Below the pieces are notes generated by a model, which worked only from the letters and a program-made list of their open reading frames with translations, had not been told where the DNA came from and did no database searches. Source: a virus (taxonomy: Duplodnaviria > Caudoviricetes). From it: a stretch of 61,804 nt of DNA. The position numbers and the translations under genes are program-made. The stretch lies in the IMG/VR virus record IMGVR_UViG_3300012920_000040, positions 1 through 61,804 of that record. The stretch is one strand, 5' to 3'. This document shows positions 35,607 through 55,538 of this stretch, one piece after another; the first letter of the stretch is position 1, and the number at the start of each line of letters is the position of its first letter.

Positions 35607-35664
35607 TTTTGATGTGAATTTTGCATTATTCAAGATGATATAATACTTCTAATACTAACCTAAT

Positions 35665-36093: not shown

Positions 36094-39000
36094 ATGCCTC
36101 TTAGCAGACTTGATAATTTCCTTAAAAACGTACGTGGCAATATTCTGTATGTTGACCCCAACAACTTGGATGCTACAGACGGTATTGAGAATCAGGGAAA
36201 TTCCATTGCTCGTCCATTCAAAACCCTGCAAAGGGCATTAATTGAAGCAGCTAGATTCTCCTATCAGAGGGGACAAGATAATGACAGGTTTGAGAAGACA
36301 ACAGTTATGCTTCTCCCTGGTGAACATGCCATTGATAATAGACCTGGTTGGATTCCCACAGGAACAACTGCAACCCCAAACACATTTTTGCTGAGAAATG
36401 GTCAGACTGCTACTGACTTTCCTGCGCTGAGCAACACTAGTGATTTTAATGTTTTTGCTGAAAACAATATTCTCTACAAGTTCAATAGTATTCATGGTGG
36501 CATCATCATCCCCAGAGGTGTGTCAATTGTTGGTTCTGATTTAAGAAAAACCAAAATTAGACCACTTTATGTTCCAAACCCCAAAAATGATGATATTGAA
36601 AGGTCTGCAATTTTCAGGGTAACTGGTGCTTGTTATTTCTTCCAGTTCTCTATTTTTGATGCTAAACCCACAAGAGGTGTATATAGAGATTATACAACAA
36701 ATAAAGCAGCACCCACATTCTCACACCACAAACTAACCTGTTTTGAATATGCTGATGGCATCAATCCAGTTAGTATTAATGATGAATTCAACACCTACAC
36801 AACAAGTCGCACTGACTTGGAGATGTATTATGAGAAAATAGGTAGAGCTTATGGTCCTGCTAGTGGTAGAGAAATCTCACCAAACTTCCCTGACCCTGGT
36901 GTAGATATTCAACCCAGAATTGATGAATTTAGGATTGTTGGTCCTATTGGTGGTGGTGTTGGTATCAGCAGTATTAAGGCAGGTGATGGCAACAACCCAT
37001 CTACTCTTATCAATGTTAAGACCTCAGCAGGTATTGAGGGTCTTAATGTAGATACAAATGTCATTATCAATAATGTAACTGACCCCAGATACAATGGAAC
37101 CTTCCTTGTTAAGGAAGTTTTGGATACTAATGCTAATGGTGTAACTGAATTTTCCTATGAAGTTCCTGTAACACCAGCAAATGCTCTCCCCAATCCACTG
37201 GGTTCAAGTATTGACCTTTCTACTGATACAGTATCCAGTGCATCACCCTATGTCTTTAATATCTCACTGAGATCAATCTTTGGCATGTGTGGTATGCACG
37301 CTGATGGATCTAAAGCAACTGGATTCAAGTCAATGGTTGTGGCTCAATTCACTGGAATCAGCCTTCAGGTTGATGACAATGCATTTGTGAAGTATAACTC
37401 ATCAAGTGGCACATTTGATGACTCCACTACTGTTCCTAATCTGCATACAGACATTAATGCAGTTTATAAACCATCATATGAGAACTTCCACATCAAGGCA
37501 TCTAATAATGGTTTGATGCAGTTGGTATCCATCTTTGCTATTGGATTCTCTGACCAGTTTGTTGTAGATAGTGGTGGTGATTTTTCAGTCACCAACTCAA
37601 ACTCCAACTTTGGTCAAATCGCTCTTAAATCCACTGGTTTTAGAAGAGATGCATTTTCACAGGATGATGTTGGATACATTACTCAAATTATTCCTCCTAA
37701 GACCCTTAAACCAGGTTTCTCAACAATTGAATTCCCATCAATTGATATTACCAAAACAGTAGGTGTTGGTAATGCATCAAGAATGTATCTGTATCAGTAT
37801 GAGAGTAGGGATGTAAAACCACCCTCAATTGTTCAAGGATATAGATTTGGTGCTAATCATGGTGAGAATCTATTTGCTGTGATTCCAACTAATGGTCAAC
37901 CAGTTGCTTTCTCAGCAAGAGTCATCATGGATGACACTGCAACTGATAATAGCAGACCAACAGGATATAAGAGGTCTGTTGTTGGTAGAAATGTATCAAG
38001 TGGAAATAGTATCACAAGTTCCACACTTACATTCCTTGAAAATCACCAGTTCAAACAGGGTGAGTCAATCAGAGTTATTGCAAATAATGGTAGACTGCCT
38101 GATGGTCTTAAGGCAAATAGACTTTACTATGCAATTGTTGATGGTCTGAACCCTGACCAACTGCGTATTGCACAGTCTATTAATGACTCACAAACTGCCT
38201 CTAATGTACAAATCAATAATTTGGGTGGTACATTGTATGTTGAGAGTAGAGTAAGTGACAAGACACCTGGAGACCCTGGACATCCCATTCAGTATGATGA
38301 TGCTGAAACACAATGGTTTGTAAATGTTTCCTCAGCATCTACTGAGAACAACCTGTATAACAAACTTGTATTGGGTGGTTTGGGTCCATCTTCACCTAGA
38401 ACATTTATTGTCAGAACTAATGATGTAAGACAATCAGATGATAGAATTCATAAGTTTAGATATGTAATTCCTGCTAACACAGGTATCACATCAGCAAGAC
38501 CTCCCCTTGATGGATTTACTATTCAGGAGTCAGGAGATGTTTCTGGTGCAAATGATACAGAAGTAGCACTTGCCTTCAACCCAGCATCAGTTGAGATGAA
38601 CAATGATGCTCAGATGAGAAACTTCAGTTTCATTGCTAAGACATCATATACAAATGGAATTGCATTCTATGATTGTGAAAGACCTCATGGTTTATCAATT
38701 GGTTCTAGTGTAGAAATTAATAATGTTAGAAGTACAAACTTCCCAACTGTTGGTGCTGGTCAGTCAGGATATAATGGTGTATATGAGGTAGCAGGTATTA
38801 CCAGTGAGAAGACATTCTTTGTAACTGACATCCCTTCATCACCTGGTTCATTCATCAACAATACATCTCAGAGAAACACTTCTCTCCCCACATTTAGGAG
38901 AAAGAAATTTAATGAAGATTACTATGTTTATGATGTAGAAACAATCAATGAGTATGTTAATGGAGAGCAGGATGGTATCTATTATATCAGTGTGTTGAAT

Positions 39001-41019
39001 GCCTCTAACACTCCTGATGTTTCACCATTCAATATTAATGAGTATAGTCTTTCACAACCACTCCAGCAATATTATCCTCAGATTGACAGAGACAATCCAA
39101 AGTCATCTGTACAATCAACTAAGACTTATGCTCTTCCAACTAATATTGGTGAGACTGTTGTTAATGATCCTAAGTTTAGTGTCACACAAGAAACATTGTT
39201 TGACTTCTTCAAGGATTCTGGAGTTGGTGTTGCACTAACTGATATTGTTTCAAACCCAGTTGGTACTGCTTACACTATCTTTACACAGTATGACCATGGA
39301 TTGAACAAAATCTCAGTTGCTAATGTTGATAATGGTGGTTCAGGATATGGTGATGGAACTGCTACAATTCAATATTACTACAATGCTAAACTTGAGAATA
39401 CTCAACCTGGTTCAATTGGTAGATTTGCAACTGCAAGAGTAACAGTTGATGGAACATCTGCTGGTGAAATTATTGATTGTGAAATTATGGATGGTGGTTC
39501 AGCATTTGTTGCTGGTGACACATGTAGAATTACTGGTATCACCACTACAGCAGGATTTACCTTTGCTACAGTCAATGTAAGTCAAATTAGAGAGAATAGA
39601 GGTGATACTATTCAGGTAACTGGTATTGGTGATTATAATGGAAGAATGTACAATAAGTTGTACAGAATTGCTGCTATCTCTGGAACTAAACAAATTGATG
39701 TATTGCCCATCAATGAGTCACCTGGTATCTCTACTTTAGGATTAGGTCTTGATGTAGCAAAAGATGGATCCATGAGTCTTATTGGACCAACATATAATGC
39801 TCTTAGAATTGTAGATAATGGATTTATGTATGACCAGGTTTCTGGCATTGCTACCTTAACTACACAACAAAATAATGATATTAGAGTTAATAACACAGTA
39901 ACAGTCAGCAGAGCAGATGCTGACCTGTACAATGGTAATTTTGTTTGCATTGACAAAATTGGTCTTACTACTGTTGTTTTGGATGTAGGTATTGCAACAG
40001 TTACACCTGCTGCTAATGATGGTATTCTTATCCATCCAGGTGGTTATGATACAAACTTTGGTGACCTGGTTGTTGAGAATGGTAGACTACATGGCAGAGA
40101 AACACAAATCTATGCTGGTATCTCCACTGTATTGTTCCAACCAATTACAAGTTCAACTACTGATACCATCAGTATTGAGAACATGCCAAGATTTGACCTT
40201 AAAATTGGTGACTATCTGAGAGTTAATGATGAGTTGATGAGAATTAAGCAAACAGTAAGTAGAGTTGCCACTGATACCACAGTTAAGGTATTCAGAGGTG
40301 TTTATGGTAGTGTTGCTGACACTCACCCAGTTGGTTCTGTTATTAAAAAAGTTAAGTTCTATCCTCTTGAGTTTAGAAGAAACTCTATTATCAGAGCATC
40401 TGGTCACACATTTGAATATATTGGATATGGACCTGGTAACTACTCCACAGCATTCCCAGATAGACAGACTAGACAGTTATCTTTGTCAGAACAAATTAAC
40501 GTTCAGTCAATGAAAATCTCTGGTGGTGTTGTAAACTACACTGGCATGAATGACAGAGGTGACTTCTTCATTGGTAACAAGAGAATTGCTTCTAACACTG
40601 GTAGAGAGCAAGTCTATGACACACCAGTACAAACAGTTTGTGGTGAAGACCCATACTCTGGTGGTTCAGTTTCTGATACCTCTGACTTCAACTATGTTGA
40701 CTCCTCTATTCTCAAGGTTGAGAGAAACATGGTTATTGATGGTGGTGACAAAGGAGACATCCTTTCAGAGTTCAATGGACCTGTTTCATTCTCCAAGAAG
40801 ATTGTAAGCACATCACCAGAGGGTGTTGAGGCAAATAGTCTGTTTATCCAGGGTAATGCCCAAGTTTCAAGAAAAGTTACTGTTGGTATTGCTACTCCTA
40901 CAGAAGCAGGAACACCTGGTGACATTGTATTTGCTGCTAACCCAACAAATGGTGGCACTGTTGGTTGGGTTTACACAACAGGTAACAATTGGAAGACATT
41001 TGGAGCCATTGAGAGCTGA
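36094..41019 (+). CDS. Large virion structural protein (1641 aa) with beta-helix-like regions
   Basis: MPLSRLDNFLKN..PFKTLQRALIEA, GSDLRKT, TNSNSNFG; AATAAATA upstream. Confidence 0.85.
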   Translation: MPLSRLDNFLKNVRGNILYVDPNNLDATDGIENQGNSIARPFKTLQRALIEAARFSYQRGQDNDRFEKTTVMLLPGEHAIDNRPGWIPTGTTATPNTFLLRNGQTATDFPALSNTSDFNVFAENNILYKFNSIHGGIIIPRGVSIVGSDLRKTKIRPLYVPNPKNDDIERSAIFRVTGACYFFQFSIFDAKPTRGVYRDYTTNKAAPTFSHHKLTCFEYADGINPVSINDEFNTYTTSRTDLEMYYEKIGRAYGPASGREISPNFPDPGVDIQPRIDEFRIVGPIGGGVGISSIKAGDGNNPSTLINVKTSAGIEGLNVDTNVIINNVTDPRYNGTFLVKEVLDTNANGVTEFSYEVPVTPANALPNPLGSSIDLSTDTVSSASPYVFNISLRSIFGMCGMHADGSKATGFKSMVVAQFTGISLQVDDNAFVKYNSSSGTFDDSTTVPNLHTDINAVYKPSYENFHIKASNNGLMQLVSIFAIGFSDQFVVDSGGDFSVTNSNSNFGQIALKSTGFRRDAFSQDDVGYITQIIPPKTLKPGFSTIEFPSIDITKTVGVGNASRMYLYQYESRDVKPPSIVQGYRFGANHGENLFAVIPTNGQPVAFSARVIMDDTATDNSRPTGYKRSVVGRNVSSGNSITSSTLTFLENHQFKQGESIRVIANNGRLPDGLKANRLYYAIVDGLNPDQLRIAQSINDSQTASNVQINNLGGTLYVESRVSDKTPGDPGHPIQYDDAETQWFVNVSSASTENNLYNKLVLGGLGPSSPRTFIVRTNDVRQSDDRIHKFRYVIPANTGITSARPPLDGFTIQESGDVSGANDTEVALAFNPASVEMNNDAQMRNFSFIAKTSYTNGIAFYDCERPHGLSIGSSVEINNVRSTNFPTVGAGQSGYNGVYEVAGITSEKTFFVTDIPSSPGSFINNTSQRNTSLPTFRRKKFNEDYYVYDVETINEYVNGEQDGIYYISVLNASNTPDVSPFNINEYSLSQPLQQYYPQIDRDNPKSSVQSTKTYALPTNIGETVVNDPKFSVTQETLFDFFKDSGVGVALTDIVSNPVGTAYTIFTQYDHGLNKISVANVDNGGSGYGDGTATIQYYYNAKLENTQPGSIGRFATARVTVDGTSAGEIIDCEIMDGGSAFVAGDTCRITGITTTAGFTFATVNVSQIRENRGDTIQVTGIGDYNGRMYNKLYRIAAISGTKQIDVLPINESPGISTLGLGLDVAKDGSMSLIGPTYNALRIVDNGFMYDQVSGIATLTTQQNNDIRVNNTVTVSRADADLYNGNFVCIDKIGLTTVVLDVGIATVTPAANDGILIHPGGYDTNFGDLVVENGRLHGRETQIYAGISTVLFQPITSSTTDTISIENMPRFDLKIGDYLRVNDELMRIKQTVSRVATDTTVKVFRGVYGSVADTHPVGSVIKKVKFYPLEFRRNSIIRASGHTFEYIGYGPGNYSTAFPDRQTRQLSLSEQINVQSMKISGGVVNYTGMNDRGDFFIGNKRIASNTGREQVYDTPVQTVCGEDPYSGGSVSDTSDFNYVDSSILKVERNMVIDGGDKGDILSEFNGPVSFSKKIVSTSPEGVEANSLFIQGNAQVSRKVTVGIATPTEAGTPGDIVFAANPTNGGTVGWVYTTGNNWKTFGAIES

Positions 41020-41048
41020 TAAATAAAACTAACGTTGACCTTAGATAA

Positions 41049-44000
41049 ATGGGTATCGATAAGGATTTTGTCATACGCAATGGCATAGAAGTAAACGAGG
41101 ATCTACTATATGCTGACGCTGTTAATGACAGGGTTGGCATTGGTACATCAGTTCCAGAGTGTACATTAGATGTTGTAGGTAATATTTGTGGTAGTGCTCA
41201 GATATCTGCTGCCACAACTGTTGTTTCCCAAAACCTTTCAGTTTCTGGTTTTGCCACAGTATTTGAGCAACTAGATGTTGGAGTTGGTGGTACAGTTTTA
41301 ACTGTAAGTGTTGTTAACCAAAATGTTGGTGTTAATTCAACACAACCATTCTATACTCATGAAATTATTGGTCCTGTATCAACTGGTCAGACTGCAGGTT
41401 ATATTTTTGGTGACCTATTAGTAACTGGTGACATTACAGCAACAAATCTGAATGGTCAGATTACTGCTGGTGGTACTGTTACCTTCAATGATGTTACTGT
41501 CACCAATGTTCTAGATGCTAATGATAGCAAAATCTATAGTAGATTTGATGTAGAGAGAGTTGGAAATCTATTCAACTTTGTGACAGATGGTGACCCACCT
41601 GGTATTGGTTTTACTCAAAACACTACAAACCCTGAACTATTTTTGCTCAGAGGTAAGAGATACCAGTTCCATGCAAATACTCCTGGTTTCCCATTCTACA
41701 TTAAGACGCAACCAACTGCAAATCTAGATGATTTGTATGATGGAGGTGTCTTCAATAATGGTGCTCAGGTGGGTATTGTCACATTTGAGATTCCATTTAA
41801 TGCTCCTAATATACTATACTACCAGGCATCAAACGTTGCAGGTATGGGTGGAACAATCTACCTGAACAATGACTATAAGACACTAAATGTTGCTATTGCA
41901 ACTGTAACTAATTTCCTTGATGCCTCAAATGCAGACTTTGAATACATCAATGTAACTGGATTTGGTACAATTGCCAACTTTGCTGATACTGGTGGCACAA
42001 CAATCAGTGCTGGTATTGTTACTGCCAATAAGTTTGTAGGTGTTACTACAGGTGGTGATGCTGTTAGTATTCATCAAAAGAATGATGATGTAGCATATCA
42101 GGTTACTTTTACTGATGTAATTCCAGGATTTTCTGGTTTAGGTTCTAACTATCAATTATTGAATATTGATTCTGATGACACTGACCTTACTTATAATCCA
42201 TCAAACAAAACTCTCACTGCCAGAAACTTTGCTGGTATTGCCACTGGTGGAGAGAGAATTAAGGTAAGAAAAGAATCATCAAATAATAACTTCCAGATTC
42301 ATTTCAGTGATAATTCAGCAACTGGATATGAATTAGTAAGAATTGATAGTGACTCATCTGAACTCACTTATAATCCCTCATCAAACACTTTAAATGTCTC
42401 AAATATTTCAGTAGACAAGTTTGTTGGTGATATCTATGCTGATAATGGCACATCACAGATTCTAGAGAATGGCACTGATGGCACAAATGCTACCTTTACT
42501 GGTCAGGCATCAAATGCCACCAATGTAAATATTCTGAATGATGAGAGCACAAATGCTGGTCATTTTGTCAACTTCTCCAATACAACCTCTGGTAACCAGA
42601 GAATTCAAGCAGATAGTCAATTTGTTTACAATCCTAGCACTGGTCATCTGACAGTTCCTGAGGTATTTGCATTCTTGGCAGGCACTGCTGATGATGCCTT
42701 AAATATTGATATTGATCAAAGAAATAATAATCAGAACTATCAGGTAGGATTTACTACTGCTAATGGAACAGGTTTCCAGAGAATGTATATTGACTCAGAT
42801 ACTGGTCAATTTACTTATAACCCCTCTACTGGAAGACTGACTGTTACCTCATTTGCTGGTGATGGCAATAACATTACCAATGTTAGTGTAACAAATATTA
42901 CTGGTGGTTTAGGTGATGTTATTAACATTGACCTCATTCAGGATGCATCAACAACACAACAGGGTGTTGTTCAATTAAGTAATGCCATTGATGGTACTAG
43001 ACAGAATATTGCTGCTTCTGAGAAGGCAGTAGGTGACCTTAAGATTCATGCTAACAATGCATCCAATCTTTCTAATGGTACTGTCAACAATGATAGATTA
43101 CTTAAGGCATCACTGACTCAGCAGGGTATTGTCTCACTGAGTGATAGTATTGATGGCACTAGTCAAACTATTGCTGCTTCTGAAAGAGCAGTTGGTTTGC
43201 TGAATGCTCATGCTGGAAATGCATCTAACCTTACTGAAGGTTTGGTAAATATTAACTTGATTCAAGATGCATCAACTACAGTGCAGGGTGTTGTTCAATT
43301 AAGTAACGCCATTGATGGTGATAGACAAAATATTGCTGCTACTGAAAAAGCTGTTGGTGACTTAAAGAATTATGTTGACACCACACCTGTCAACCCTGAT
43401 AACCTTCCAAAAGCATCCTATACTTTACAAGGTATTGTTCAATTAAGTCAAAAATTTGACTCTGAGTCAACTAATGCAGCTAATTTAGCATTTACTGAGC
43501 AAGGTGCTGTAAAACTAAGAGCACATGCAAATAATGCTTCTAATTTAACTTCTGGTATTGTTGACAATGCCAGATTAAATGTGGCATCTTATACTCAACA
43601 AGGTATCACTGATTATACTAAAAACTTTAAGACAGATGATGATGGTTCTGCACTTAGTGGTACAGGTGCTAATGATCTCAGGAAACATGCTGCTAATGCT
43701 AGTAACTTAACTTCTGGCACTGTATCTAATGATAGACTGAATAAAGCAAGCACTACTGCTCAAGGTATTGTTCAATTAAGTAATGCTATTGATAGCACAT
43801 CTCAGACTGTTGCTGCTTCTTCAAAAGCTGTAAATGATTTGAGATTAGCAACTCAAAATGGTGGCAATATTACTGAGGGTACAATTAATTCAGATAGAAT
43901 TAATAGAGCAACTTACACTGTGGTTGGTGTTACCAAACTAAGTAAGACTTTCACAGGTGATGCTGATAGTGATTCTGATGATTTGGCATTCAGTGAAGAG

Positions 44001-44777
44001 GGTGCTATCAACCTCAGAAAACATGCCAATAATGCCTCTAATTTATCATCTGGAACTGTTAATAATGACAGACTGAATAAAGCAAGCACCACAACACAAG
44101 GTATTGTTTTACTTGATAATACTTTCCCACCAGATAGCACTTCTACATCTGAGACATTTACATCTAATGTAATAACTCAAATTTATAATGCAGCAATTAA
44201 TGCAACTCTGCCAGCTGGCACAGTCATGGTATTTGTGCAGAAAAACGCTCCAACTGGTTGGACAAGGCAGACAGGTAATGCTGGTAGAGCAATGAGAATT
44301 GTTGGTGGAGGTTCTTCACCTTTTGGTGGATCAACAAATAATACTGGTAGTAGCTTCACTTCTGTCTTCAAACAACACACTGTTCCACTACCAAGTCATA
44401 ATCATAGCACTCAGGTTGGAGACGAGCAGGGTAATCACAAACATGGTGGTTCTGCTGACACAGGTGGTCAACATAATCATGAATTTGCTGATAATGGACA
44501 TGCTCATGGTTTTGAGAATGCTTTTGAGGAAGAGGGTGAATCTGCTTCAGGTGATGGTTCAGAAAACCAAGATGGTAGAGCAAAAGAAAGCACTACTAAT
44601 AAGAAGCAGGCAGGTATCCAATTCAATATGGATAATGGTCACAAACACCAGATTGACACTGGAAACCAGCAAGGTTCACACGCCCACAATGTACAAATAG
44701 ATAGTGAAGGAGAAAGTAGTCCTAATATTGACTTTAGAATTAAGTATGTTAATGTAATTCTTTGTTCTAAGGACTAA
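41049..44777 (+). CDS. Tail fibre protein with fibre repeats, collar-like domain and His-rich tip
   Basis: ASTTxQGxVQLSNAID..AASEKAV repeats; PAGTVMVF..APTGW; multiple HxH motifs. Confidence 0.85.
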   Translation: MGIDKDFVIRNGIEVNEDLLYADAVNDRVGIGTSVPECTLDVVGNICGSAQISAATTVVSQNLSVSGFATVFEQLDVGVGGTVLTVSVVNQNVGVNSTQPFYTHEIIGPVSTGQTAGYIFGDLLVTGDITATNLNGQITAGGTVTFNDVTVTNVLDANDSKIYSRFDVERVGNLFNFVTDGDPPGIGFTQNTTNPELFLLRGKRYQFHANTPGFPFYIKTQPTANLDDLYDGGVFNNGAQVGIVTFEIPFNAPNILYYQASNVAGMGGTIYLNNDYKTLNVAIATVTNFLDASNADFEYINVTGFGTIANFADTGGTTISAGIVTANKFVGVTTGGDAVSIHQKNDDVAYQVTFTDVIPGFSGLGSNYQLLNIDSDDTDLTYNPSNKTLTARNFAGIATGGERIKVRKESSNNNFQIHFSDNSATGYELVRIDSDSSELTYNPSSNTLNVSNISVDKFVGDIYADNGTSQILENGTDGTNATFTGQASNATNVNILNDESTNAGHFVNFSNTTSGNQRIQADSQFVYNPSTGHLTVPEVFAFLAGTADDALNIDIDQRNNNQNYQVGFTTANGTGFQRMYIDSDTGQFTYNPSTGRLTVTSFAGDGNNITNVSVTNITGGLGDVINIDLIQDASTTQQGVVQLSNAIDGTRQNIAASEKAVGDLKIHANNASNLSNGTVNNDRLLKASLTQQGIVSLSDSIDGTSQTIAASERAVGLLNAHAGNASNLTEGLVNINLIQDASTTVQGVVQLSNAIDGDRQNIAATEKAVGDLKNYVDTTPVNPDNLPKASYTLQGIVQLSQKFDSESTNAANLAFTEQGAVKLRAHANNASNLTSGIVDNARLNVASYTQQGITDYTKNFKTDDDGSALSGTGANDLRKHAANASNLTSGTVSNDRLNKASTTAQGIVQLSNAIDSTSQTVAASSKAVNDLRLATQNGGNITEGTINSDRINRATYTVVGVTKLSKTFTGDADSDSDDLAFSEEGAINLRKHANNASNLSSGTVNNDRLNKASTTTQGIVLLDNTFPPDSTSTSETFTSNVITQIYNAAINATLPAGTVMVFVQKNAPTGWTRQTGNAGRAMRIVGGGSSPFGGSTNNTGSSFTSVFKQHTVPLPSHNHSTQVGDEQGNHKHGGSADTGGQHNHEFADNGHAHGFENAFEEEGESASGDGSENQDGRAKESTTNKKQAGIQFNMDNGHKHQIDTGNQQGSHAHNVQIDSEGESSPNIDFRIKYVNVILCSKD
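42940..44130 (+). repeat. Degenerate tail-fibre repeats (about 8 copies)
   Basis: Recurring AS.T.QG.V.L...HANNASNL.SG.V.N.RL. Confidence 0.85.
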
Positions 44778-45111
44778 TTTCTGGAGGATGAGGAGGAATC
44801 ATTGGTGGGTTCAGAGGGGTTACCTGAGCAGGAATAACCCCTTGCTGCTCAAGACCAGCAATATATAATTGTTGATTTACTTCATTTGCTTTTACAACTT
44901 CATTTCTAAAACTTTCCACAGCTGCACCAGTTTGATTTGCCTTAGACGCAATCTCAATTGACATCATAGGCATCCAAGCTATTGCACATCTCCACTCAGA
45001 AAAATCTGCTCCAGTTTGAGGGTCTGTACCCTGAACTTGTATATACCATGCACACTTATGTTCCTTACAATTTTTCTGAATAAGGGGACACCATTCACCA
45101 CCTTTTGCCAT
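44767..45111 (-). CDS. Cys-rich conserved hypothetical protein (possible fibre partner)
   Basis: CPL..C..HKCAW..G.DPQTG..W.CA..WMP; own late motif on minus strand. Confidence 0.8.
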   Translation of the reverse strand: MAKGGEWCPLIQKNCKEHKCAWYIQVQGTDPQTGADFSEWRCAIAWMPMMSIEIASKANQTGAAVESFRNEVVKANEVNQQLYIAGLEQQGVIPAQVTPLNPPMIPPHPPEISP

Positions 45112-45137
45112 GCTAAATATATCTCTCTTTTTGAAAT

Positions 45138-45162
45138 TATTTATCTGGGCATCTTATAAATA
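45138..45162. promoter_or_regulatory. Back-to-back divergent late promoters
   Basis: GATAAATA on minus (45138-45145), TATAAATA on plus (45155-45162). Confidence 0.75.
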
Positions 45163-45189
45163 AAACTAACGGACACAGCAGTGTAGAGA

Positions 45190-48100
45190 ATGTCATTACT
45201 TAGGGCTGACAGAGTTGCCAATAGATTTAATAACACTGGCCCTATCATTGTAGGTCCTTCCACAGTCCATGGTGATTTTACAATTACTGGGGACCTAATT
45301 GTAGCTGGAATTGCAGTAACTAATAGCATTCAGATTGGTGCTGCACTCACTGTTAAAGACTTAATTGTACAGCAACAGACAAATTTAAACAACTTAAATG
45401 TAACAGGAGTTACAACTGCTGGCATCATCACAGGTGCAACTTTCTTTGGTGAAGGATCAAATATTTCTGGTATTGTTACTACAATAACCAGTTCAAGAGG
45501 CATTCAGATTACCCCTGGAAGTGGTAAGGGAACTGTAAATATTTTTGCTGTAGATGTAGTAGAAGCAGGATTTGCTAATGTTGCTGCTGGTGCTACAAAC
45601 TTAACTGGTGGTGACCAGGGTAGAATTCCTTATCAGATCAATCCTGGAGAGACAGGTTTCTCTGCTACTGGTAATGTAGGTGAGATTCTGTTGTCTGGTG
45701 GGACTGGCTCACCCACTTGGTCAAGTCTGGCAGCAATTAATGTTGCCTATGCTGATAGTGCAGGTATCTCAACAGATATATTTGGTGGTTCTGCTGGTAG
45801 AATTGTCTATCAAGCAGGTATTGACCAGACAGATTTTGTTCCAGTAGGTGCCACTGGCAGAATTTTACAAGCAAATGGATCAAGTTCTCCATCCTGGTTG
45901 GATGCTAGAGTAGGTTTAAGTGTATCCTTTGCTAAATTTGCTGGTGTATCAACTAATGTAACTGGTGGCATTGCATCAGTTACTCATCTTTCTGTTGGTG
46001 AGAATGGTAGTGGTATTGCTACATTCTTTGGACCAATTCAAGGTGTTGATATCAATCTAACTGGTGTTACAACCACCACTACCTTACAAGTTTCTTCTGC
46101 TGCCACTATTCCCAGTCTGACCTTATCAACTGGTCCTGGTGTAGGTGTAACTGCCATCCTTGATGAGGATGACCTTGCATCAGATAGAGCAGATGCCCTG
46201 GCAACACAACAATCAATCAAAAAATATGTTGATGACCAGGTAACAGCACAAGACCTTGATGGTACTACTGATGATGGCATTTTTGCTGTTGACCTTGATA
46301 GTCAAACACTTGACCTTCGTGGTGATGCAAATCAGGTCTATGTAACTGCTTCTGGTCAGCAAGTAAATATTGGTTTTACTACTGATGTCACCATTGCTAA
46401 TGACCTGACTGTAACAGGTAATGCTGGTATTGGTAGTCTGAGTGTTACTGGAATCTCTACAATCCAGACACTTGGTATCAATGGTGTTCTGACTACACCT
46501 TTTGCTAACATCACTGGTGTTGCCACAGTAACCAGATTAAATTCAACTCAGAATGAGTTTACTGATATTAATCTGACTGGCATTGCCACTGCTAGAATGC
46601 TTGATGTAACTGGTGTTACATCTACTGCTAACCTAAGAGTAACAGGACTCACAACTGTTACTAGATTTGAATCCACAGGTATTGCTACATTCAAGAATGA
46701 TATCTATCTTACCTCTGGTAATACTTTCTACAATGCTAACTTAAGCAATCCCAATTTTGTTGGTGTTGCCACTGCTCAAAGATTTGAGTTTGATGTTGCA
46801 GATGGTCCTTATGCCAATGTAACTGGCATTGCAACCATTGCAAATATTCAATCAACCACTGTCAATGTATCTGGTGTATCCACATTCAGTGACAATGTTG
46901 GTATAGCAAGTCTGAATGTAAGTGGCATTTCTACACTTCAGACTCTTGGTGTTACAGGTGTAACAACCACTCAGATGCTTCAGGTAACTGGCATCACATC
47001 AATCAATAACCTGAGTGTCACTGGTGTTGCCACATTCACTGGTGAACTTGATATCAGTGGTAACATTGGCATCAACTCTGCTGTTCTTACCGGTCTCACA
47101 ACAATCAGTGAACTGGATGTAAGTGGTGATGCATCAATCACAGGTAATGCTGGCATTGGCAGTCTTAATGTAACTGGCATTACAACATTATCCAGTGTCA
47201 CTGTAACAGGTAATGCTGGTATTGGTAGTCTTAATGTAACTGGTATTTCTACATTTAATGAGGATATTCAAGGAACAGACTTAACTCTCTCAGGAAATGC
47301 TGGTATTGGTAGTCTGAATGTGACAGGCATCACCACATTATCAAATGTTACTGTAACAGGTAATGCTGGAATTGGAAGTCTTAATGTTACAGGAATCTCA
47401 ACCTTCTCCAATACAACCACTACTGGTAATGCTGGAATTGGAAGTCTGAATGTAACTGGAGTATCCACATTTACTGGTCTTGTAGAAGTACAGAACAATC
47501 TGACAGTTGGTGGAAACCTTGGCATCTCAAGTCTTAATGTTACTGGCATATCTACATTCTCTGATATCACAGTAACAGGTAATGCTGGTATTGGTAGTCT
47601 GAATGTAACAGGTGTTTCTACCCTTGGAGTTACAACTGCTACCAGTCTTTCACTTAATGAATTAATTGTTGCTGGTCTCACCACAACTGCCACATTAAAT
47701 GTTGGTGATTTAGCAGGTATTGGTGCCACAATAGATGGAAATGGTGATGCAGTATTTGCTGGCATTATTACAGCAGCAGGTCTTAATATTACTGGCAGTA
47801 GTGGTAGTGCTTCATTTTCTGATATCACTGTTTCTGGTAATGCAGGTATTGGCAGTCTGAATGTCACTGGTATTTCAACCTTTACCAATACAGTCACCAC
47901 TGGTAATGCTGGCATTGGTAGTCTGAATGTTACTGGCATCTCTACATTCTCTAATATTACTGTTACAGGTAATGCAGGAATTGGCAGTCTCAATGTTACT
48001 GGTATCACAACTCTTGGAATTACAACAATCAGTGACTCACTTTATGTAAGTGGCATTGCTTCTGTTGGTACAATGATTACAATGTACCCAAGCAGTGGTA

Positions 48101-51100
48101 TTGTAAGTGCCACATCATTCTATGGTGATGGTTCTAACCTGACTGGTGTTGTTGGTCTGGTATCTGTTACCAACATTCTGTTTGTCACACCTGATGGTGA
48201 TGATAATAATGATGGTTATCTGGTATCAACTGCTAAGAGAACTGTTGGTTCTGCTCTGACAGTAGCAGAGGCATCCACAGTAATTAAAATTTCTGCTGGT
48301 GCTTATCTTGAGAACAACCCCATCATTCTGCCTGAGCAGGTTACTCTCCTTGGAGATAGTTTGAGAGAAGTATCCATTGTTCCACAGAATCCTGATGAAG
48401 ACCTCATCTATGTTGCTAATGGCAGTTATGTTGAGAACATTTCCTTCACTGGGGCATTAAATGAAGGCAAAGCAATTATTGCCTTTAATCCCAACAAACC
48501 ATCTTATGTGACACAGGGACCATACATTAGAAACTGCACAAACTTCATCTCCAACAGTATTGGTATGAAGATTGATGGTGCTCATGTAGTTGGTGACACC
48601 AGAGCAATGAATGTTGACTCCTACACTCAACTAAATCAGGGTGGTATTGGTGTTTCAATCTCAAATGAAGGTTATGCTCAGTTAGTTTCTATCTTTACCA
48701 TCTATAATGACCAGAGTATTGTTTGTACTTCTGGTGGTCAATGTGACCTGACTAACTCCAACTCTTCCTTTGGTAGATTAGGTCTGGTTGCTGATGGTAT
48801 TGGACCCACTAACTTCATTGGAACTATCACTGAGTTCCAAGCTGCTGGTCAAAATACCTTCCCAATTGATATTAGCACTGAAACAATCTCTGTATCAGAT
48901 GCAGCATATGAAAAAACTTCTGGTCTGACAACCATCACTACTCATAAGAATCATGGATTCCAAGTAGGGATGAGCATCAACCTTGCTGGTCTTGGTTTCA
49001 CCTGTCCTCCTTATCCACATACATTTAGCAGTGGTGTTGCTAATGCTATCATCAACTCTGATGTAGCAGGATACATCACTCCTCAGACTGGATCAACAGG
49101 AACATCATATGACCCAGCAACTGGTCTTCTTGTTATTGATGCTAACACAAATCATGGTTTGAGTGCTGATACCACATTCACTGCTACAACTGGAACTGGA
49201 TATGAGCCTTCAACTGGTATTCTGACTGTTGTTACCACTCTTGCTCATGGAATGTCAACTGGTGATTATGTCAAAATTGTTGAGGATTCATTGAGATTCA
49301 CTTGTGCTAAGGATGGCAATACTACAAACCATGACTATCCTAGAGCAAATGACCCAATCAATAATAAGTGGAAGCAAGTTATTGTTACCAATGCTACCAC
49401 ATTCACCATTAATGTTGGTAAGTCTTCTGACACCTCTCTTCATACTTGGGTAAGTGCTGTTGCAGATGGTATCCTGAGAGCAAATAGTCTCATTAGTATT
49501 GTTGATGGTGGCATCACATTTACATGTGCTCAGGATGGTAATACAACAAACCATGCTTATCCTAGATTTACTGACCCTGCATCAGGTAAAATCTTTGGTG
49601 TTGAGGCTGTAACAGCACAGACAATTACTGTTAATATTGGCAAGTCACCTTCTGGTGGATTGCATAATTTTGTAAGTGCTGTTGCTGATGCTGTAGTTGT
49701 AAGAAACAATCAGGCATCATATACTGCTGTTAATGGAACAACTTATGATGGTCCTACTGGTCAACTTGTCTTGGATGTTAATACAGCACATGGATTGACT
49801 GCTGCAACTTCACTGACTGCTGACAATGGCACAACATATATTCCTTCAACTGGTCTTCTGACTGTTGTTACTTCTGGTGCTCATGGATTAGCAACTGGTG
49901 ACCTGGTTAAGTTTGACAAGCAATCACTAACATTCACCTGCACATCTGATGGTAACACTGCTCAAATTGCTTATCCCAGAGCAACTGACCCAGTATTCAA
50001 TAAGTGGAAGCAAGTCACTGTAGTCAATGCCACTCAGTTCACTGTATTCATTGGTAAAACAGTAACAGGTGATTATGAACACACATTTGTTTCTGGTGCT
50101 GCTGGTGGTATTAAGAGAGCAAATAGCATGATTACTCTTACAGACAATTCTGTAAGTTTCACCTGCACCAAAGATGGTAACACTGTTGTTAAGTCATATC
50201 CTGCTTACACTGACCCTGCATCTTGCAGAATCTTAGGTGTAGAAGCAGTAACTGCTGATACTATCACAGTCAATGTTGGTCCTGCCAACTTGGCAACCTT
50301 CCCAGATAACTTTGGCAATATCTTTACTGTCAGTAAGATAAACAGTCTTACACAGTTTGAGACATTTGTTGGGTTCTCAACTATTACTCATGGTTATGAC
50401 AGTGGTGGTAATACCAACAACTTTGTCACCAGACCTTATGATGGTCAGGTTGTCTACTTTGACAGCATCTTTAACACTATCAGTGGTGTCACAATCACTA
50501 ATGGTGGCAGTGGATACACACAACCACCACAAGTTACATTCTCTGACCCATCTGAATCTTGGGGCATCAAAGCAACAGGAAATGCTGAAATTACCAATGG
50601 TAGAGTGACTGGAGTAACAATGATTTCTAATGGTAGAGGTTACACTGGAACACCTACTGTAACCATTGCTGGTGCTGCTACAGGCACACCTGATATCTTA
50701 CCTACATACTATGTGGTTAGTAGTGCTACTCCTATTTCCCAGGGTATATCTACTGTCACATTTACTGATAATGTGCCTTATGCACTTGGTGTTGGAAATA
50801 CAGTTCCATTCTTTAAGCAGAGTAGAGTATTAGCATCCAGCCAAGCATTTGAATACATTGGTTCTGGTAATACATTCCCTGATGCTCTCCCTGCTCGTGG
50901 TGGTGTTGCTATCCCAGAAAATGAAATTGTGAATAAGAATGGAGGTCTGGTCATCTTTACTTCAACTGACCAGGCAGGTAACTTCAAAATTGGTGAAGGT
51001 GTCATCATCAACCAACTTGAAGGTTCAATTACTGGTGATGCTTACAATAGAAGTCTCTTTGCCAACATTACACCTTACATTCTCGCATTAGGAGGAGATT

Positions 51101-51105
51101 CATAA
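45190..51105 (+). CDS. Giant repetitive fibre/structural protein (1971 aa)
   Basis: Thr/Gly/Val-rich beta repeats, GDSLR beta-helix-like region, TSTDQAGNFKIG C-terminus. Confidence 0.85.
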   Translation: MSLLRADRVANRFNNTGPIIVGPSTVHGDFTITGDLIVAGIAVTNSIQIGAALTVKDLIVQQQTNLNNLNVTGVTTAGIITGATFFGEGSNISGIVTTITSSRGIQITPGSGKGTVNIFAVDVVEAGFANVAAGATNLTGGDQGRIPYQINPGETGFSATGNVGEILLSGGTGSPTWSSLAAINVAYADSAGISTDIFGGSAGRIVYQAGIDQTDFVPVGATGRILQANGSSSPSWLDARVGLSVSFAKFAGVSTNVTGGIASVTHLSVGENGSGIATFFGPIQGVDINLTGVTTTTTLQVSSAATIPSLTLSTGPGVGVTAILDEDDLASDRADALATQQSIKKYVDDQVTAQDLDGTTDDGIFAVDLDSQTLDLRGDANQVYVTASGQQVNIGFTTDVTIANDLTVTGNAGIGSLSVTGISTIQTLGINGVLTTPFANITGVATVTRLNSTQNEFTDINLTGIATARMLDVTGVTSTANLRVTGLTTVTRFESTGIATFKNDIYLTSGNTFYNANLSNPNFVGVATAQRFEFDVADGPYANVTGIATIANIQSTTVNVSGVSTFSDNVGIASLNVSGISTLQTLGVTGVTTTQMLQVTGITSINNLSVTGVATFTGELDISGNIGINSAVLTGLTTISELDVSGDASITGNAGIGSLNVTGITTLSSVTVTGNAGIGSLNVTGISTFNEDIQGTDLTLSGNAGIGSLNVTGITTLSNVTVTGNAGIGSLNVTGISTFSNTTTTGNAGIGSLNVTGVSTFTGLVEVQNNLTVGGNLGISSLNVTGISTFSDITVTGNAGIGSLNVTGVSTLGVTTATSLSLNELIVAGLTTTATLNVGDLAGIGATIDGNGDAVFAGIITAAGLNITGSSGSASFSDITVSGNAGIGSLNVTGISTFTNTVTTGNAGIGSLNVTGISTFSNITVTGNAGIGSLNVTGITTLGITTISDSLYVSGIASVGTMITMYPSSGIVSATSFYGDGSNLTGVVGLVSVTNILFVTPDGDDNNDGYLVSTAKRTVGSALTVAEASTVIKISAGAYLENNPIILPEQVTLLGDSLREVSIVPQNPDEDLIYVANGSYVENISFTGALNEGKAIIAFNPNKPSYVTQGPYIRNCTNFISNSIGMKIDGAHVVGDTRAMNVDSYTQLNQGGIGVSISNEGYAQLVSIFTIYNDQSIVCTSGGQCDLTNSNSSFGRLGLVADGIGPTNFIGTITEFQAAGQNTFPIDISTETISVSDAAYEKTSGLTTITTHKNHGFQVGMSINLAGLGFTCPPYPHTFSSGVANAIINSDVAGYITPQTGSTGTSYDPATGLLVIDANTNHGLSADTTFTATTGTGYEPSTGILTVVTTLAHGMSTGDYVKIVEDSLRFTCAKDGNTTNHDYPRANDPINNKWKQVIVTNATTFTINVGKSSDTSLHTWVSAVADGILRANSLISIVDGGITFTCAQDGNTTNHAYPRFTDPASGKIFGVEAVTAQTITVNIGKSPSGGLHNFVSAVADAVVVRNNQASYTAVNGTTYDGPTGQLVLDVNTAHGLTAATSLTADNGTTYIPSTGLLTVVTSGAHGLATGDLVKFDKQSLTFTCTSDGNTAQIAYPRATDPVFNKWKQVTVVNATQFTVFIGKTVTGDYEHTFVSGAAGGIKRANSMITLTDNSVSFTCTKDGNTVVKSYPAYTDPASCRILGVEAVTADTITVNVGPANLATFPDNFGNIFTVSKINSLTQFETFVGFSTITHGYDSGGNTNNFVTRPYDGQVVYFDSIFNTISGVTITNGGSGYTQPPQVTFSDPSESWGIKATGNAEITNGRVTGVTMISNGRGYTGTPTVTIAGAATGTPDILPTYYVVSSATPISQGISTVTFTDNVPYALGVGNTVPFFKQSRVLASSQAFEYIGSGNTFPDALPARGGVAIPENEIVNKNGGLVIFTSTDQAGNFKIGEGVIINQLEGSITGDAYNRSLFANITPYILALGGDS
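47130..48020 (+). repeat. ~22-aa tandem repeat TGNAGIGSLNVTGISTF
   Basis: About ten copies visible in protein and DNA. Confidence 0.9.
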
Positions 51106-51106
51106 A

Positions 51107-51457
51107 ATGGCACTAGCCCTTAACAATTATCAGACAATCACTGGTATTGTCACAGCAAACACTGAAAATGTTGGTATTTACACAGCACCAACTGGTTATA
51201 GTGCTATTGTCCTTTTAGCACAAGCAACCAATACTGGTAGTGACACTCAAACTGTTAATTTTTCACATGTAAGATCAAGAACAGGTACTGCTGTCACCAC
51301 TGAAATTTTATTGGGATTCCCAGTTCCTAAAAATGATGCTGCTAATCTCTTAGCAGGTAAACTGGTTTTAGAGACTGGTGATTCACTTGTTATAAAATCC
51401 AGTAGCAATACTGATGTGAAATTTATCTCATCTATCCTAGAGACACTTAATCAGTAA
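51107..51457 (+). CDS. Small structural protein
   Basis: YTAPTG..IVL...GKLVLETGDSL..SILE; AGGAGG SD. Confidence 0.8.
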   Translation: MALALNNYQTITGIVTANTENVGIYTAPTGYSAIVLLAQATNTGSDTQTVNFSHVRSRTGTAVTTEILLGFPVPKNDAANLLAGKLVLETGDSLVIKSSSNTDVKFISSILETLNQ

Positions 51458-51465
51458 TAGAAAAA

Positions 51466-53466
51466 ATGACAAGGTACGCCAGCAAAGACTTTAAGGACCT
51501 TAAAGTAGGTATAGATAATTTTAGTGATGGCAAAACATCACTAGAAGTGGTTGGTCGTCTTGGGGTCAACACTGACTTTGCTCAACAAGAATTTCATGTT
51601 GAGGGTTCAGCATATTTTTCAAATAGCATTGGTATTGGAACAACAGCACCAGGTGATGTTGTAGATGTTGCTAATAGAGAAAAAATTAGTGTTGGTATTG
51701 TTACTGCTAATGAATATTATGGTTCTGGTCTAGGACTGACTGGAATTACTAGTGCAGGGTCTGCAGTTAATATATTTGGTGGAGGAGCAGGACAACTTTT
51801 ATATCAAGAAGCAACTGGTATAACAACATTCTTTGAGAATGGTTCAACAGGACAAGGTTTATATTCTAGAGGACCAGGACAACCTCCACAATGGTTGCCA
51901 GTGGCACCTGCTGGTGCTATTGAGGGTATTACTTTATTTGATGAAGGATCACTTGTAGCAACAGCAGGTAGTTTTGGTGCTCTTAACATTGTAGGTAATA
52001 ATCTAAGTGTAATTGGTGTTGTAACATCTGGAGAAGTAGGTGTTGCCACAATTACTTTAGATAGTAATGTTATATTTAATACTCTTACTATCAATGGGGT
52101 AGCAACTGCTAGCACAATTACTGGTGCTGATTACTTTGGTACTGGTGATAACATCACTGGAATTGTCACCAGTTTTGCTATTAGTGGTGCAGGATTAACA
52201 TTTGCTTCAACCCAAGTATTAGGTTCACAAGGTAAGGGTGTAGTCACACTGACTGCAATTGCAACCACAGAGAATGTAAGGTCAGATACTTTATTTGTCT
52301 CTGGCATCAGCACTCTCAACAATGCCAATATCACTGGCACTGTTCAGAATGGCACATTCAATAATACAAATCTGACTGGTGTTACATCAATTGCCAATCT
52401 AGATGCAAATGATATTGATGTTGAATTTTTAAGAGTTGGCACTGCCTCAACATTTGGTAATGTAAACATCACTGGCACTGTTCAGAATGGCACATTTAAT
52501 AATACAAATCTGACTGGTGTTACCACAATTGCCTCTCTTGATGCAACACATGTTGATGCTGAAACAATATTTGTAAGTGTTGGTGGTACAATTCAAGGTG
52601 ACTTAACAGTTACTGGAACACTTACATATGATGATGTAACAGAAATTGACTCCATTGGCATTATTACTGCTAGGGATGGCATTAATATTGGCGATCCTGC
52701 ATCACCAATTGGAATTGCTGCTACTCTTACAGCAGCAGGTGGTGCAGTATTTACAGGTATTGTTACTGCTCCAAGTTATGATGGTAGTGGTATTAACTTA
52801 ACAGGTATTGTTACCTCTATTACAGCAGGTGAAAATATTTCAATTGACCAGTCTACAGGCAATGTAACTGTCACTGGATTAGCAAAAACTGATAATATTA
52901 CTGCTGACCAACTGGTTGTCATTGGTGTTTCTACACTGAGTGGTGGTGTTAATGTTGGCGGCACTGACCCCAATGTTGCAATTGGTGTTACTATTGAGAA
53001 TACTGGTAATGCACAATTTGCTGGTATTATTACAGCAACCAATTTCTATGGTGAAGGTTCTAATATCAGTGGCATTGTTACATCACTTGTTGCTGGTGAA
53101 AATATTTCAATCTCAGGTGCAACAGGTCAAGTAACAATTACTGGACTTGCTAAAACTGATAACATCAATGCTGACCAACTAACAGTTATTGGTGTATCTA
53201 CCCTTGGTGGTGGTGTTAATATTGGTGGAACAACACCCAATGTTGCCATTGGTGCTACACTTGAGAATACTGGTGATGCTCAGTTTGCTGGTATTGTTAC
53301 ATCTAAGAATCTTGTAGTGACTGAAAATGTTGCTATTGGAACTGATGCCTTAAATCCAAGTTTTGCTCTTGAGGTTAAAGGTGATGTCAACATTGATGGT
53401 CAATTAAGCAGCAATAGCAACACTGTTCCATCATTGGCAATGGTTATTGCCCTTGGTGGTTTTTGA
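51466..53466 (+). CDS. Fibre-like structural protein with internal duplications
   Basis: NITGTVQNGTFNNTNLTGVT x2; GIVTS..AGENISI..AKTDNI.ADQL block x2; ends VIALGGF. Confidence 0.8.
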   Translation: MTRYASKDFKDLKVGIDNFSDGKTSLEVVGRLGVNTDFAQQEFHVEGSAYFSNSIGIGTTAPGDVVDVANREKISVGIVTANEYYGSGLGLTGITSAGSAVNIFGGGAGQLLYQEATGITTFFENGSTGQGLYSRGPGQPPQWLPVAPAGAIEGITLFDEGSLVATAGSFGALNIVGNNLSVIGVVTSGEVGVATITLDSNVIFNTLTINGVATASTITGADYFGTGDNITGIVTSFAISGAGLTFASTQVLGSQGKGVVTLTAIATTENVRSDTLFVSGISTLNNANITGTVQNGTFNNTNLTGVTSIANLDANDIDVEFLRVGTASTFGNVNITGTVQNGTFNNTNLTGVTTIASLDATHVDAETIFVSVGGTIQGDLTVTGTLTYDDVTEIDSIGIITARDGINIGDPASPIGIAATLTAAGGAVFTGIVTAPSYDGSGINLTGIVTSITAGENISIDQSTGNVTVTGLAKTDNITADQLVVIGVSTLSGGVNVGGTDPNVAIGVTIENTGNAQFAGIITATNFYGEGSNISGIVTSLVAGENISISGATGQVTITGLAKTDNINADQLTVIGVSTLGGGVNIGGTTPNVAIGATLENTGDAQFAGIVTSKNLVVTENVAIGTDALNPSFALEVKGDVNIDGQLSSNSNTVPSLAMVIALGGF

Positions 53467-53491
53467 TAAATAACTAAAAAGTATTGATACG

Positions 53492-54019: not shown

Positions 54020-54020
54020 T

Positions 54021-54779: not shown

Positions 54780-54799
54780 ATACCTAAAAAGAAGTAGAA

Positions 54800-55501: not shown

Positions 55502-55538
55502 TATATAACCATTAGATAAATAACTAAAAAGTATTGAG

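Follow-up and report, generated by a model that had tools for sequence, protein, structure and literature searches.

CG depletion centred on YCGR in a T4-like cyanophage fragment and a few of its relatives

What has removed the dinucleotide CG from the genome of a marine cyanophage? The question is raised by IMG/VR record IMGVR_UViG_3300012920_000040, whose whole stretch of 61,804 nucleotides (nt; positions 1-61,804) we call the window. It is a linear viral-contig record of a T4-like cyanomyovirus, about 30% complete, and it is CG-depleted throughout: 251 CG dinucleotides are present, an observed-to-expected ratio (o/e) of 0.107, with TG at 1.435, CA at 1.405 and the GC dinucleotide at 0.89. 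Only about a tenth of the CG expected in the window is left. The loss is a lineage-specific avoidance of a DNA motif, being neither a by-product of protein or codon usage nor a copy of host composition. The context most affected is YCGR (Y, pyrimidine; R, purine), and the explanation we rank first, at a probability of roughly 45%, is selection against a DNA-level reader of YCGR or CG, probably a nuclease.

The CG deficit

How large is the deficit, and how even? The original prediction, which drew attention to the region 36,094-53,466, had claimed about 4 CG in the gene at 45,190-51,105 and about 10 in the gene at 36,094-41,019, and these are exactly the numbers present (o/e 0.016 and 0.055, respectively); the region as a whole has 31 CG (o/e 0.047). 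The claimed abundance of TG and CA is borne out by the ratios of 1.435 and 1.405, and the claim that the bias holds across most of the window is correct in that every 2-kb segment lies within a CG o/e of 0.00-0.25, though unevenly. Depletion is strongest between 16 and 54 kb, and is milder (0.11-0.25) in three stretches: the photosynthesis and pentose-phosphate block (1-6.4 kb), the stretch 6-16 kb, and a set of fibre-like genes (54.8-59.9 kb).

Could amino-acid or codon composition produce such a deficit? CG falls short at codon positions 1-2 (84 observed versus 430 expected, 0.195), at positions 2-3 (36 versus 505, 0.071) and across codon junctions 3-1 (81 versus 868, 0.093); the latter two figures bear directly on NCG codons and NNC-GNN junctions, whose near-absence had been predicted. 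Arginine, also as predicted, is mostly encoded by AGA (441 codons, with 116 AGG and 84 CGN). The DNA outside the 39 large open reading frames (ORFs) has a CG o/e of 0.153. Synonymous-codon shuffling was applied to the four giant fibre-like genes that occupy 36,094-53,466 on the plus strand, at 36,094-41,019, 41,049-44,777, 45,190-51,105 and 51,466-53,466. The shuffles gave mean counts of 102, 65, 128 and 33 CG, versus the 10, 10, 4 and 4 observed, and none of the 500 shuffles made for each gene was as low as the observed count. Because no shuffle reaches the observed counts, amino-acid and codon composition is no explanation of the CG deficit. A composition artefact is ruled out by these shuffles together with the deficit at all codon positions and outside the ORFs, so that the codon-position control proposed in the original prediction leaves the deficit standing at all three positions.

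Distribution among phages and hosts

Is CG depletion simply a property of T4-like cyanophages? Among 80 viral-contig loci around homologues of gp32, CG o/e has a median of 0.54 and a range of 0.16-0.75, and among 42 loci around a baseplate protein it is mostly 0.30-0.53. The cultured phages S-B05 and S-H68 stand at 0.49 (over 200 kb) and 0.455. The two baseplate loci nearest to the window, L082 and L083, represent one phage (99.98% mutual identity) and have CG o/e values of 0.10-0.11; three other baseplate loci are at 0.14-0.21, and 19 of the 202 viral-contig loci fall below 0.3. A cultured Prochlorococcus phage with a complete genome is equally poor: P-TIM68 (Haifavirus, Kyanoviridae; KM359505 / NC_028955) has 630 CG in 197,361 bp, an o/e of 0.11, with TG at 1.29 and CA at 1.35, and its 5-kb segments range from 0.00 to 0.23. 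The comparison with other T4-like cyanophages that the original prediction had suggested therefore speaks for the prediction, with one exception: the median of 0.54 for related loci means that the deficit is not general, but a few relatives such as P-TIM68 share it. The CG depletion is thus genuine and few relatives have it, although the window is not the only case.

P-TIM68 resembles the window in its CG level, in its TG and CA excess, in a focus of the loss on YCGR (o/e 0.014), in avoiding GGCC and AGCT, and in belonging to the same gp32 clade. The two differ in that only 25 reciprocal-best orthologues connect them and their baseplate proteins are about 49% identical, and in that P-TIM68 has Prochlorococcus MIT9515 as its host whereas the closest cultured relatives of the window infect Synechococcus. 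In a quick gp32 tree, all eight rows with CG o/e below 0.3 lie in one well-supported clade of 16, amid eight non-depleted rows that include S-B05 and S-H68. At least two changes of CG state are forced within this clade, as judged from a quick tree of a gene that may not represent mosaic genomes; the depletion is patchy within a single clade. Our search of the literature, with incomplete coverage, turned up no report of cyanophages depleted in CG or YCGR, and, judged by the titles and abstracts of the listed papers that name P-TIM68, no publication on the CG deficit of that phage.

One might think that a phage of this kind mirrors the dinucleotide signature of its host, and such mimicry has a general precedent, since a passage of PMC11282364 states, from earlier work, that the CpG content of phages generally resembles that of their hosts. 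The hosts sampled here, however, lack the deficit. Eighty cyanobacterial loci around psbD have CG o/e values of 0.53-1.08, and 20 further stretches of 8-20 kb from Prochlorococcaceae genomes have values of 0.45-0.91, with TG and CA near 1.0 in the low-GC ones, so that none of the 100 host stretches is below 0.45. The order of flanking contexts is also reversed in hosts, where YCGR exceeds RCGY at 40 of 42 loci (it is equal at one and lower at one) and YCGR is retained at 0.5-1.1. With hosts at 0.45-1.08 versus 0.107 for the window, and with the opposite order of YCGR and RCGY, host mimicry is ruled out, and we leave it next to no credence.

Genes that the phage has taken from its hosts are affected too. 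The host-derived metabolic genes lie at 87-6,370 on the plus strand and were assigned by Pfam as psbA, zwf (glucose-6-phosphate dehydrogenase), PTOX (plastoquinol-oxidase-like), gnd (6-phosphogluconate dehydrogenase), talC (transaldolase) and psbD, with gene CG o/e values of 0.09-0.38. For psbA the CG counts are 11 (window) and 4 (P-TIM68), as compared with 46 for S-B05 and 34-38 for two podoviruses; the psbD copies of the window and of P-TIM68 contain 21 and 3 CG, those of Synechococcus 71-79 and those of Prochlorococcus 34-41. The depletion of the window's host-derived genes is milder, yet they are far below the host and sister-phage copies in CG.

Flanking-base context

Which CG sites have gone? 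The window, P-TIM68 and L083 have YCGR o/e values of 0.022, 0.014 and 0.042, respectively, while in the same three sequences mixed contexts, with one such flank, are at 0.10-0.13 and RCGY is at 0.16-0.21. Base composition predicts about 590 YCGR for the window; 13 are present, spread over 1,809-59,931 and starting at 1,809, 4,095, 5,546, 6,162, 9,943, 11,352, 20,825, 41,056, 47,090, 54,936, 55,493, 56,980 and 59,928. The same order of contexts is found where arginine codons play no part (codon positions 2-3 plus 3-1), with YCGR at 0.027 and 0.018 versus RCGY at 0.143 and 0.173, and also outside ORFs, with YCGR at about 0.05 versus RCGY at 0.2-0.3. In S-B05 the order is the reverse, YCGR at 0.50-0.60 exceeding RCGY at 0.38. 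Across the 202 viral-contig loci, as CG o/e passes from 0.6-0.8 to below 0.2, YCGR drops 15-fold, from 0.59 to 0.04, mixed contexts 4-fold, from 0.78 to 0.19, and RCGY 2.5-fold, from 0.48 to 0.19. At codon positions 1-2 and 2-3 of P-TIM68 there is no YCGR at all, versus 558 expected, a gap that would seem beyond the reach of mutation bias alone.

Does the loss of YCGR amount to more than the sum of its two flanks? In a log-linear fit with independent flanks, the ratio of observed to fitted YCGR is 0.55 for the window (p 0.001) and 0.31 for P-TIM68 (p 6e-20). An additive model, in which YCG is lost separately on each strand, predicts mixed sites at 0.040 and 0.027, and they are observed at 0.111 and 0.133; this misfit of 3-5 fold in the mixed contexts disposes of sunlight-type or other per-strand YCG mutation as a candidate. 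The two mixed contexts, YCGY and RCGR, are nearly equal on the coding strand when arginine codons are set aside (0.089 versus 0.071, and 0.115 versus 0.100), and because they behave alike a cause at the RNA level is disfavoured. Since the non-palindromic CCGA/TCGG (0.015-0.018) is as scarce as CCGG and TCGA, the deficit is not the sum of avoidances of classical 4-bp palindromes. Avoidance of an AvaI-type site, CYCGRG, could account for no more than one YCGR site in 16, and P-TIM68 has such flanks at none of its 21 YCGR sites. YCGR is thus a symmetric short word that is rarer than its sub-words predict, with both strands alike, as in restriction-site avoidance. The signal looks like the recognition of a symmetric four-base site on duplex DNA, on top of a general lowering of CG.

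Isolation host

We sampled 20 cultured cyanophages, as stretches of 13-29 kb or whole genomes; the phages are phylogenetically non-independent and the sampled regions differ. Of the ten isolated on Prochlorococcus, myoviruses and podoviruses included, eight have a YCGR/RCGY ratio below 1, as against one of the ten from Synechococcus (Fisher p 0.0055). The Prochlorococcus phages are P-TIM68 (0.09), P-HM1 (0.29), P-HM2 (0.43), P-RSM4 (0.47), P-SSM4 (0.51), P-SSP7 and P-GSP1 (0.68 each) and MED4-213 (0.69), with P-SSM2 (1.37) and P-SSM7 (1.05) as the exceptions; the only Synechococcus phage below 1 is S-PM2 (0.96). As a lead and not a result, these ratios suggest a broader, Prochlorococcus-linked tendency, with the window and P-TIM68 at its extreme.

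Might the bias arise with no reader at all, from DNA mechanics, such as bendability for dense packaging, or from a context bias of the replication machinery? According to a passage of PMC11282364, CG under-representation is widespread in low-GC genomes that have no CG methylation, and has been linked to DNA bendability in bacteria. All sampled cyanomyoviruses do have some CG deficit (median 0.54, with RCGY at 0.2-0.6), as a physical cause would have it. Sister phages that share the virion architecture and the replication genes, however, have five times more CG, and it is a single symmetric motif of four bases on which the extra loss centres. A physical or replication-linked bias would also leave the link with isolation host unexplained, and we consider it very unlikely.

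Methylation and deamination

The original prediction offered two explanations, and the first was long-term methylation with deamination. CG, and mainly YCGR, would be C5-methylated by a host or phage enzyme, the T:G mismatches produced by deamination could not be repaired in virions, and CG would decay to TG and CA. A CG o/e of 0.107 together with TG at 1.44 and CA at 1.41 is the classical signature of this process. At four-fold degenerate sites before G-starting codons, moreover, the window has T at 0.668 and C at 0.009, and the pyrimidine share, 0.677, is as in S-B05 (0.691), so that T stands in place of C. CpG under-representation was reportedly described by Wojciechowski and colleagues in 2013 for Mollicutes that have CpG-specific methyltransferases. 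Mollicutes with M.MpeI or M.SssI are like the window in their strong CG deficit, low-GC genome and gain of TG and CA. They carry a CpG-specific C5 enzyme, however, whereas the complete relative P-TIM68 yielded none, and the phage deficit is strongly dependent on flanking bases.

Is there a suitable enzyme? No methyltransferase gene had been visible to the original prediction, and the window indeed gave no match to PF00145, the C5-methyltransferase family; neither did five depleted fragments, nor the complete genome of P-TIM68. The window covers just about 30% of its genome, which leaves room for such a gene in the other 70%, and the enzyme might also belong to an unknown family. The equally depleted P-TIM68 is complete, however, and the methylases it encodes are two of PF01555 (N6/N4), one of Dam type and one small EcoRI-methylase-like ORF. 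C5-methyltransferases are present in the related phages S-B05 and MED4-213, and S-B05, with its PF00145 enzyme, is non-depleted at 0.49. Eighty contigs that carry close homologues of the S-B05 enzyme have a median CG o/e of 0.48; 72 of them are not CG-poor and 8 are below 0.3. Because these eight exist, the enzyme and the depleted state can coexist, a point in favour of methylation, but the S-B05-type enzyme does not track depletion. With no C5-methyltransferase in the window, the five depleted fragments or P-TIM68, a phage enzyme of this family is rejected as the cause.

The eight CG-poor contigs (0.15-0.28; L318, L323, L363 and five others of L286-L365) include two with YCGR at 0.02-0.07. 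S-B05 and the 80 enzyme-bearing contigs are poor in the GC dinucleotide (0.63, and a median of 0.62), in GCGC (median 0.08) and in CCGG (median 0.15), a distinct pattern of avoidance that is possibly tied to the C5-methyltransferase of the S-B05 group or to its cognate system.

A host enzyme might serve instead, as PF00145 is found in 38 of 301 host genomes (PF01555 is found in 19 of 121). Hosts that bear C5 enzymes, however, have CG at 0.45-0.91 with no excess of TG or CA. The best matches in the PDB of one Prochlorococcus C5 enzyme are 3lx6/3me5, followed by M.HhaI, and 4dkj, which we take to be the CpG enzyme M.MpeI, is far weaker. The additive per-strand loss that deamination implies misfits the mixed contexts, as described above, and an o/e of 0.014 would require a rate excess of about 100-fold. 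The methylation alternative fits the excess of TG and CA and the shift from C to T before G; it is opposed by the lack of PF00145 in P-TIM68, by undepleted hosts, and by the occurrence of the S-B05-type enzyme on depleted and non-depleted contigs. It is weakened, and we think it unlikely.

As to the host enzymes themselves, C5-methyltransferase-domain ORFs of 680-730 residues occur at a like position (contig 1, 359-375 kb) in host genomes G134, G227, G263 and G306, and also in larger genomes. Shorter ORFs of 373 residues with this domain occur at 346-363 kb in G194 and G281.

Can the substitutions themselves distinguish mutation from selection? Comparison of the window with S-B05 gave 37 reciprocal-best orthologue pairs and 370 S-B05 CG sites in identical amino-acid context, at which the window has TG 165 times, AG 76, CG 49, CA 30, CT 30 and CC 11. 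As synonymous sites are saturated, this spectrum fits mutation and selection alike. There is no usable sister pair for polarising substitutions, because L082 and L083 are nearly identical to one another and share just 77% identity with the window. Four other runs supplied contigs that match 41,805-61,804, which were compared with the window at 40 of 1091 differing places; among these places no CG was created and none was destroyed, whereas about 3.8 CG-creating changes would be expected among the 13 T>C and A>G changes in this set. The lack of CG-creating variants agrees with continued avoidance, and again fits selection and mutation alike.

Selection against a reader of YCGR

The second explanation of the original prediction, selection against a CG-targeting factor, fits better, given a YCGR deficit beyond that of independent flanks and the association with Prochlorococcus, although no such factor has been identified. 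We infer that selection rather than mutation is the driver, and that the reader is a nuclease. Selection against a reader of duplex DNA is ranked first because of the interaction between flanks, the duplex symmetry, the extremity of the loss, the other avoided palindromes and the link with isolation host.

How might such selection have worked? Within one marine T4-like cyanophage clade, some lineages, among them those of the window, L082/L083, and P-TIM68 with its relatives, have purged CG, by about 50-fold for YCGR, about 8-fold for CG with one such flank and about 5-fold for RCGY. The purge would reflect long-term purifying selection against sites that a symmetric protein recognises in double-stranded DNA. 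The most plausible such protein is an endonuclease, which might be encoded by the host, as a restriction-type enzyme, or carried by a phage. Every CG can be removed synonymously, so that weak selection in very large phage populations could nearly eliminate the motif, and C-to-T and G-to-A changes would yield the excess of TG and CA.

Avoidance of palindromes such as GGCC and AGCT is the usual mark of restriction pressure. GGCC has an o/e of 0.11 in the window and 0.09 in P-TIM68 (0.26 and 0.36 relative to a second-order Markov expectation), and AGCT has 0.28 and 0.36. We know of no restriction system cognate to YCGR. Restriction-site avoidance in phages, to the extent covered in part of PMC6286503, is like the present case in that a short symmetric word is rarer than its parts predict and in that GGCC, AGCT and CCGG are avoided as well; it is unlike it in that the phage word is a degenerate 4-mer and the avoidance reaches the bare dinucleotide. 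CpG suppression in vertebrate viruses, through evasion of ZAP/TLR9 or through host methylation, likewise purges CG well below compositional expectation. Sensors of the ZAP/TLR9 type are restricted to vertebrates, according to a passage of PMC11282364. The phages differ from vertebrate viruses in having a cyanobacterial host and a signal on duplex DNA.

With regard to CCGG, this word is absent from 13-25 kb samples of six T4-like cyanophages, P-SSM2, P-HM1, P-HM2, MED4-213, P-SSM4 and Syn9. Two podoviruses retain it (0.46 and 1.1).

The one system known to us to have Y(5mC)GR specificity is McrA of E. coli (EcoKMcrA). The part of PMC7145662 that bears on its specificity reports that McrA binds Y(5mC)GR about 100-fold over mixed sites, and mixed sites at least 25-fold over RCGY. 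McrA thus prefers YCGR to mixed contexts and mixed contexts to RCGY, and the phage deficit follows the same order. McrA requires a methylated or hydroxymethylated cytosine, and the likeness is one of specificity only, not of membership in the same family.

Several observations weigh against selection by a nuclease. The excess of TG and CA and the S-B05 orthologue spectrum fit mutation equally well. A strict reader of YCGR leaves unexplained why RCGY and mixed CG are reduced too. We found no YCGR-reading enzyme in either phage or host. With E. coli McrA as query, 139 of the 301 host genomes gave matches; the matches listed are all HNH, start at query residue 112 or later, mostly spanning 170-268, and leave the Y5mCGR reader domain uncovered, which speaks against an McrA-type, type IV restriction homologue in hosts. 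Methyltransferases of the C5 (38 of 301) and N6/N4 (19 of 121) types are minority genes in hosts; a host restriction system that is widespread and paired with its own protective methylase is therefore not evident, and a core host N6/N4 methylase is excluded. The window genes shared with P-TIM68 but absent from S-B05 amount to one tail protein, and a search for a gene unique to depleted phages, setting the window beside P-TIM68, S-B05, S-H68 and L083, gave no candidate. The host association is indirect, drawn from 20 phylogenetically non-independent phages and from differing genome regions, and the psbD of the window is nearest to that of Synechococcus/Cyanobium (94-95%).

A small HNH ORF of 132-134 residues occupies the same chromosomal place (contig 1, 30.6-30.9 kb) in many host genomes of Prochlorococcus size (1.6-1.7 Mb), among them G025, G079, G134, G177, G194, G227, G240, G252, G263, G281 and G306. 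With 35-36% identity to the HNH portion of McrA from E. coli, it looks like a conserved small nuclease.

Might the nuclease be the phage's own weapon? A phage enzyme could cut YCGR-rich host DNA, thereby shutting down the host and recycling its nucleotides, the phage being spared by its lack of the motif and not by modification. The depletion is patchy in one phage clade, as a trait that depends on a phage gene would be, hosts with YCGR at 0.5-1.1 are rich targets, and no host C5 or N6/N4 methylases would be needed, which most hosts lack. P-TIM68 also has nuclease-like ORFs that are absent from S-B05: a PvuII-like ORF at 47,192-47,734, whose match to PvuII endonuclease is weak (E 0.002, below the cut-off), and an HNH ORF at 154,483-154,881. 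No candidate gene is common to the depleted genomes compared, however, and the milder YCGR deficits of unrelated Prochlorococcus podoviruses point to the host and not to a myovirus gene. Of the 162 P-TIM68 ORFs of at least 90 residues, 45 have no match in the non-depleted sequences compared, and the depleted fragments lie outside those regions. On balance a phage weapon appears quite unlikely.

P-TIM68 contains a restriction-modification-like cassette at 46,248-48,278, made up of a PF01555 methylase (3e-58), the small EcoRI-methylase-like ORF and the PvuII-like ORF. An ORF annotated as anti-restriction lies 4 kb beyond it.

Returning to selection against a reader, a more specific version is possible but doubtful: that an undescribed nuclease-type system of picocyanobacteria, chiefly Prochlorococcus, or of their phages reads YCGR and, more weakly, any CG, and that an abundant marine cyanophage clade escaped from it by genome-wide rewriting, photosynthesis genes included. 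Such a system would read unmodified or specially marked DNA. In the boldest form of this doubtful proposal the enzyme would be the phage's own shredder of host DNA, with the lack of a motif replacing DNA modification in distinguishing self from non-self.

Why does the identity of the reader matter? Few host-virus pairs on Earth are as abundant as Prochlorococcus and Synechococcus with their T4-like phages, and the intracellular defences of these pairs are little known. A genome-wide purge of a four-base motif by about 50-fold records a strong and long-lasting molecular pressure, one that reaches freshly host-derived genes such as psbA. A reader, if found, would add a principle of defence and counter-defence in the main primary producers of the ocean, whether it proved to be a nuclease of the phage, a nuclease that depends on modification, or a restriction enzyme whose degenerate specificity is unusual. 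Knowledge of it could explain the resistance of some strains to genetic manipulation, and the ratio of YCGR to RCGY may aid host prediction for uncultured cyanophage contigs. P-TIM68 provides a cultured system for direct testing.

Gene content of the window

The window belongs with the T4-like cyanomyoviruses (Kyanoviridae), as its Pfam matches include gp32, gp59, T4_baseplate, gp53, psbA, psbD, talC, phoH and thyX, and its closest records are Kyanoviridae. Its closest cultured relatives are the Synechococcus phages S-H68, RN05-S, RB11-B, S-B05 and S-B43, at about 78% nt identity over 12-23% of a 25-kb query. Beyond the metabolic genes, Pfam identifies the nucleotide and replication genes ThyX, PhoH, gp59 and gp32, and the window also encodes T4 baseplate proteins and giant fibre-like ORFs. 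In the equally depleted baseplate and tail block (15,683-34,925) 2-kb segments have CG o/e values of 0.02-0.16, and at 20-34 kb YCGR is at 0.01 and RCGY at 0.14. Phage_fiber_2 repeats were found by Pfam within the giant gene at 41,049-44,777.

The fibre-like ORFs at 54,800-59,899, on the plus strand, are richer in CG, with o/e values of 0.34 (54,800-55,501), 0.32 (55,539-57,155) and 0.22 (58,649-59,899); the ORF that lies amid them, at 57,179-58,627, has 0.04. The CG-richer ORFs look like mosaic pieces that have yet to reach the CG level of the genome. In the segment 54,500-60,500, contigs of four other runs connect about 55.7 kb with about 59.0 kb, omitting about 3 kb, and there is a sharp peak of depth at 59,814-60,480. 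The joined contigs and the depth peak suggest paralogous fibre modules that recombine or vary in number among strains.

The sole transfer RNA (tRNA) gene, tRNA-Leu (anticodon TAA; 35,521-35,607, plus strand), encodes a structured RNA and lies within a slight local increase in CG. A PhotoRC-II RNA motif (41.7 bits) lies upstream of psbA at 1-86 and is truncated by the window start. A TnsA-like endonuclease N-terminal domain (1.6e-22) was recognised in the ORF at 19,611-20,090; the corresponding ORF of S-H68 carries the annotation head completion protein gp4.

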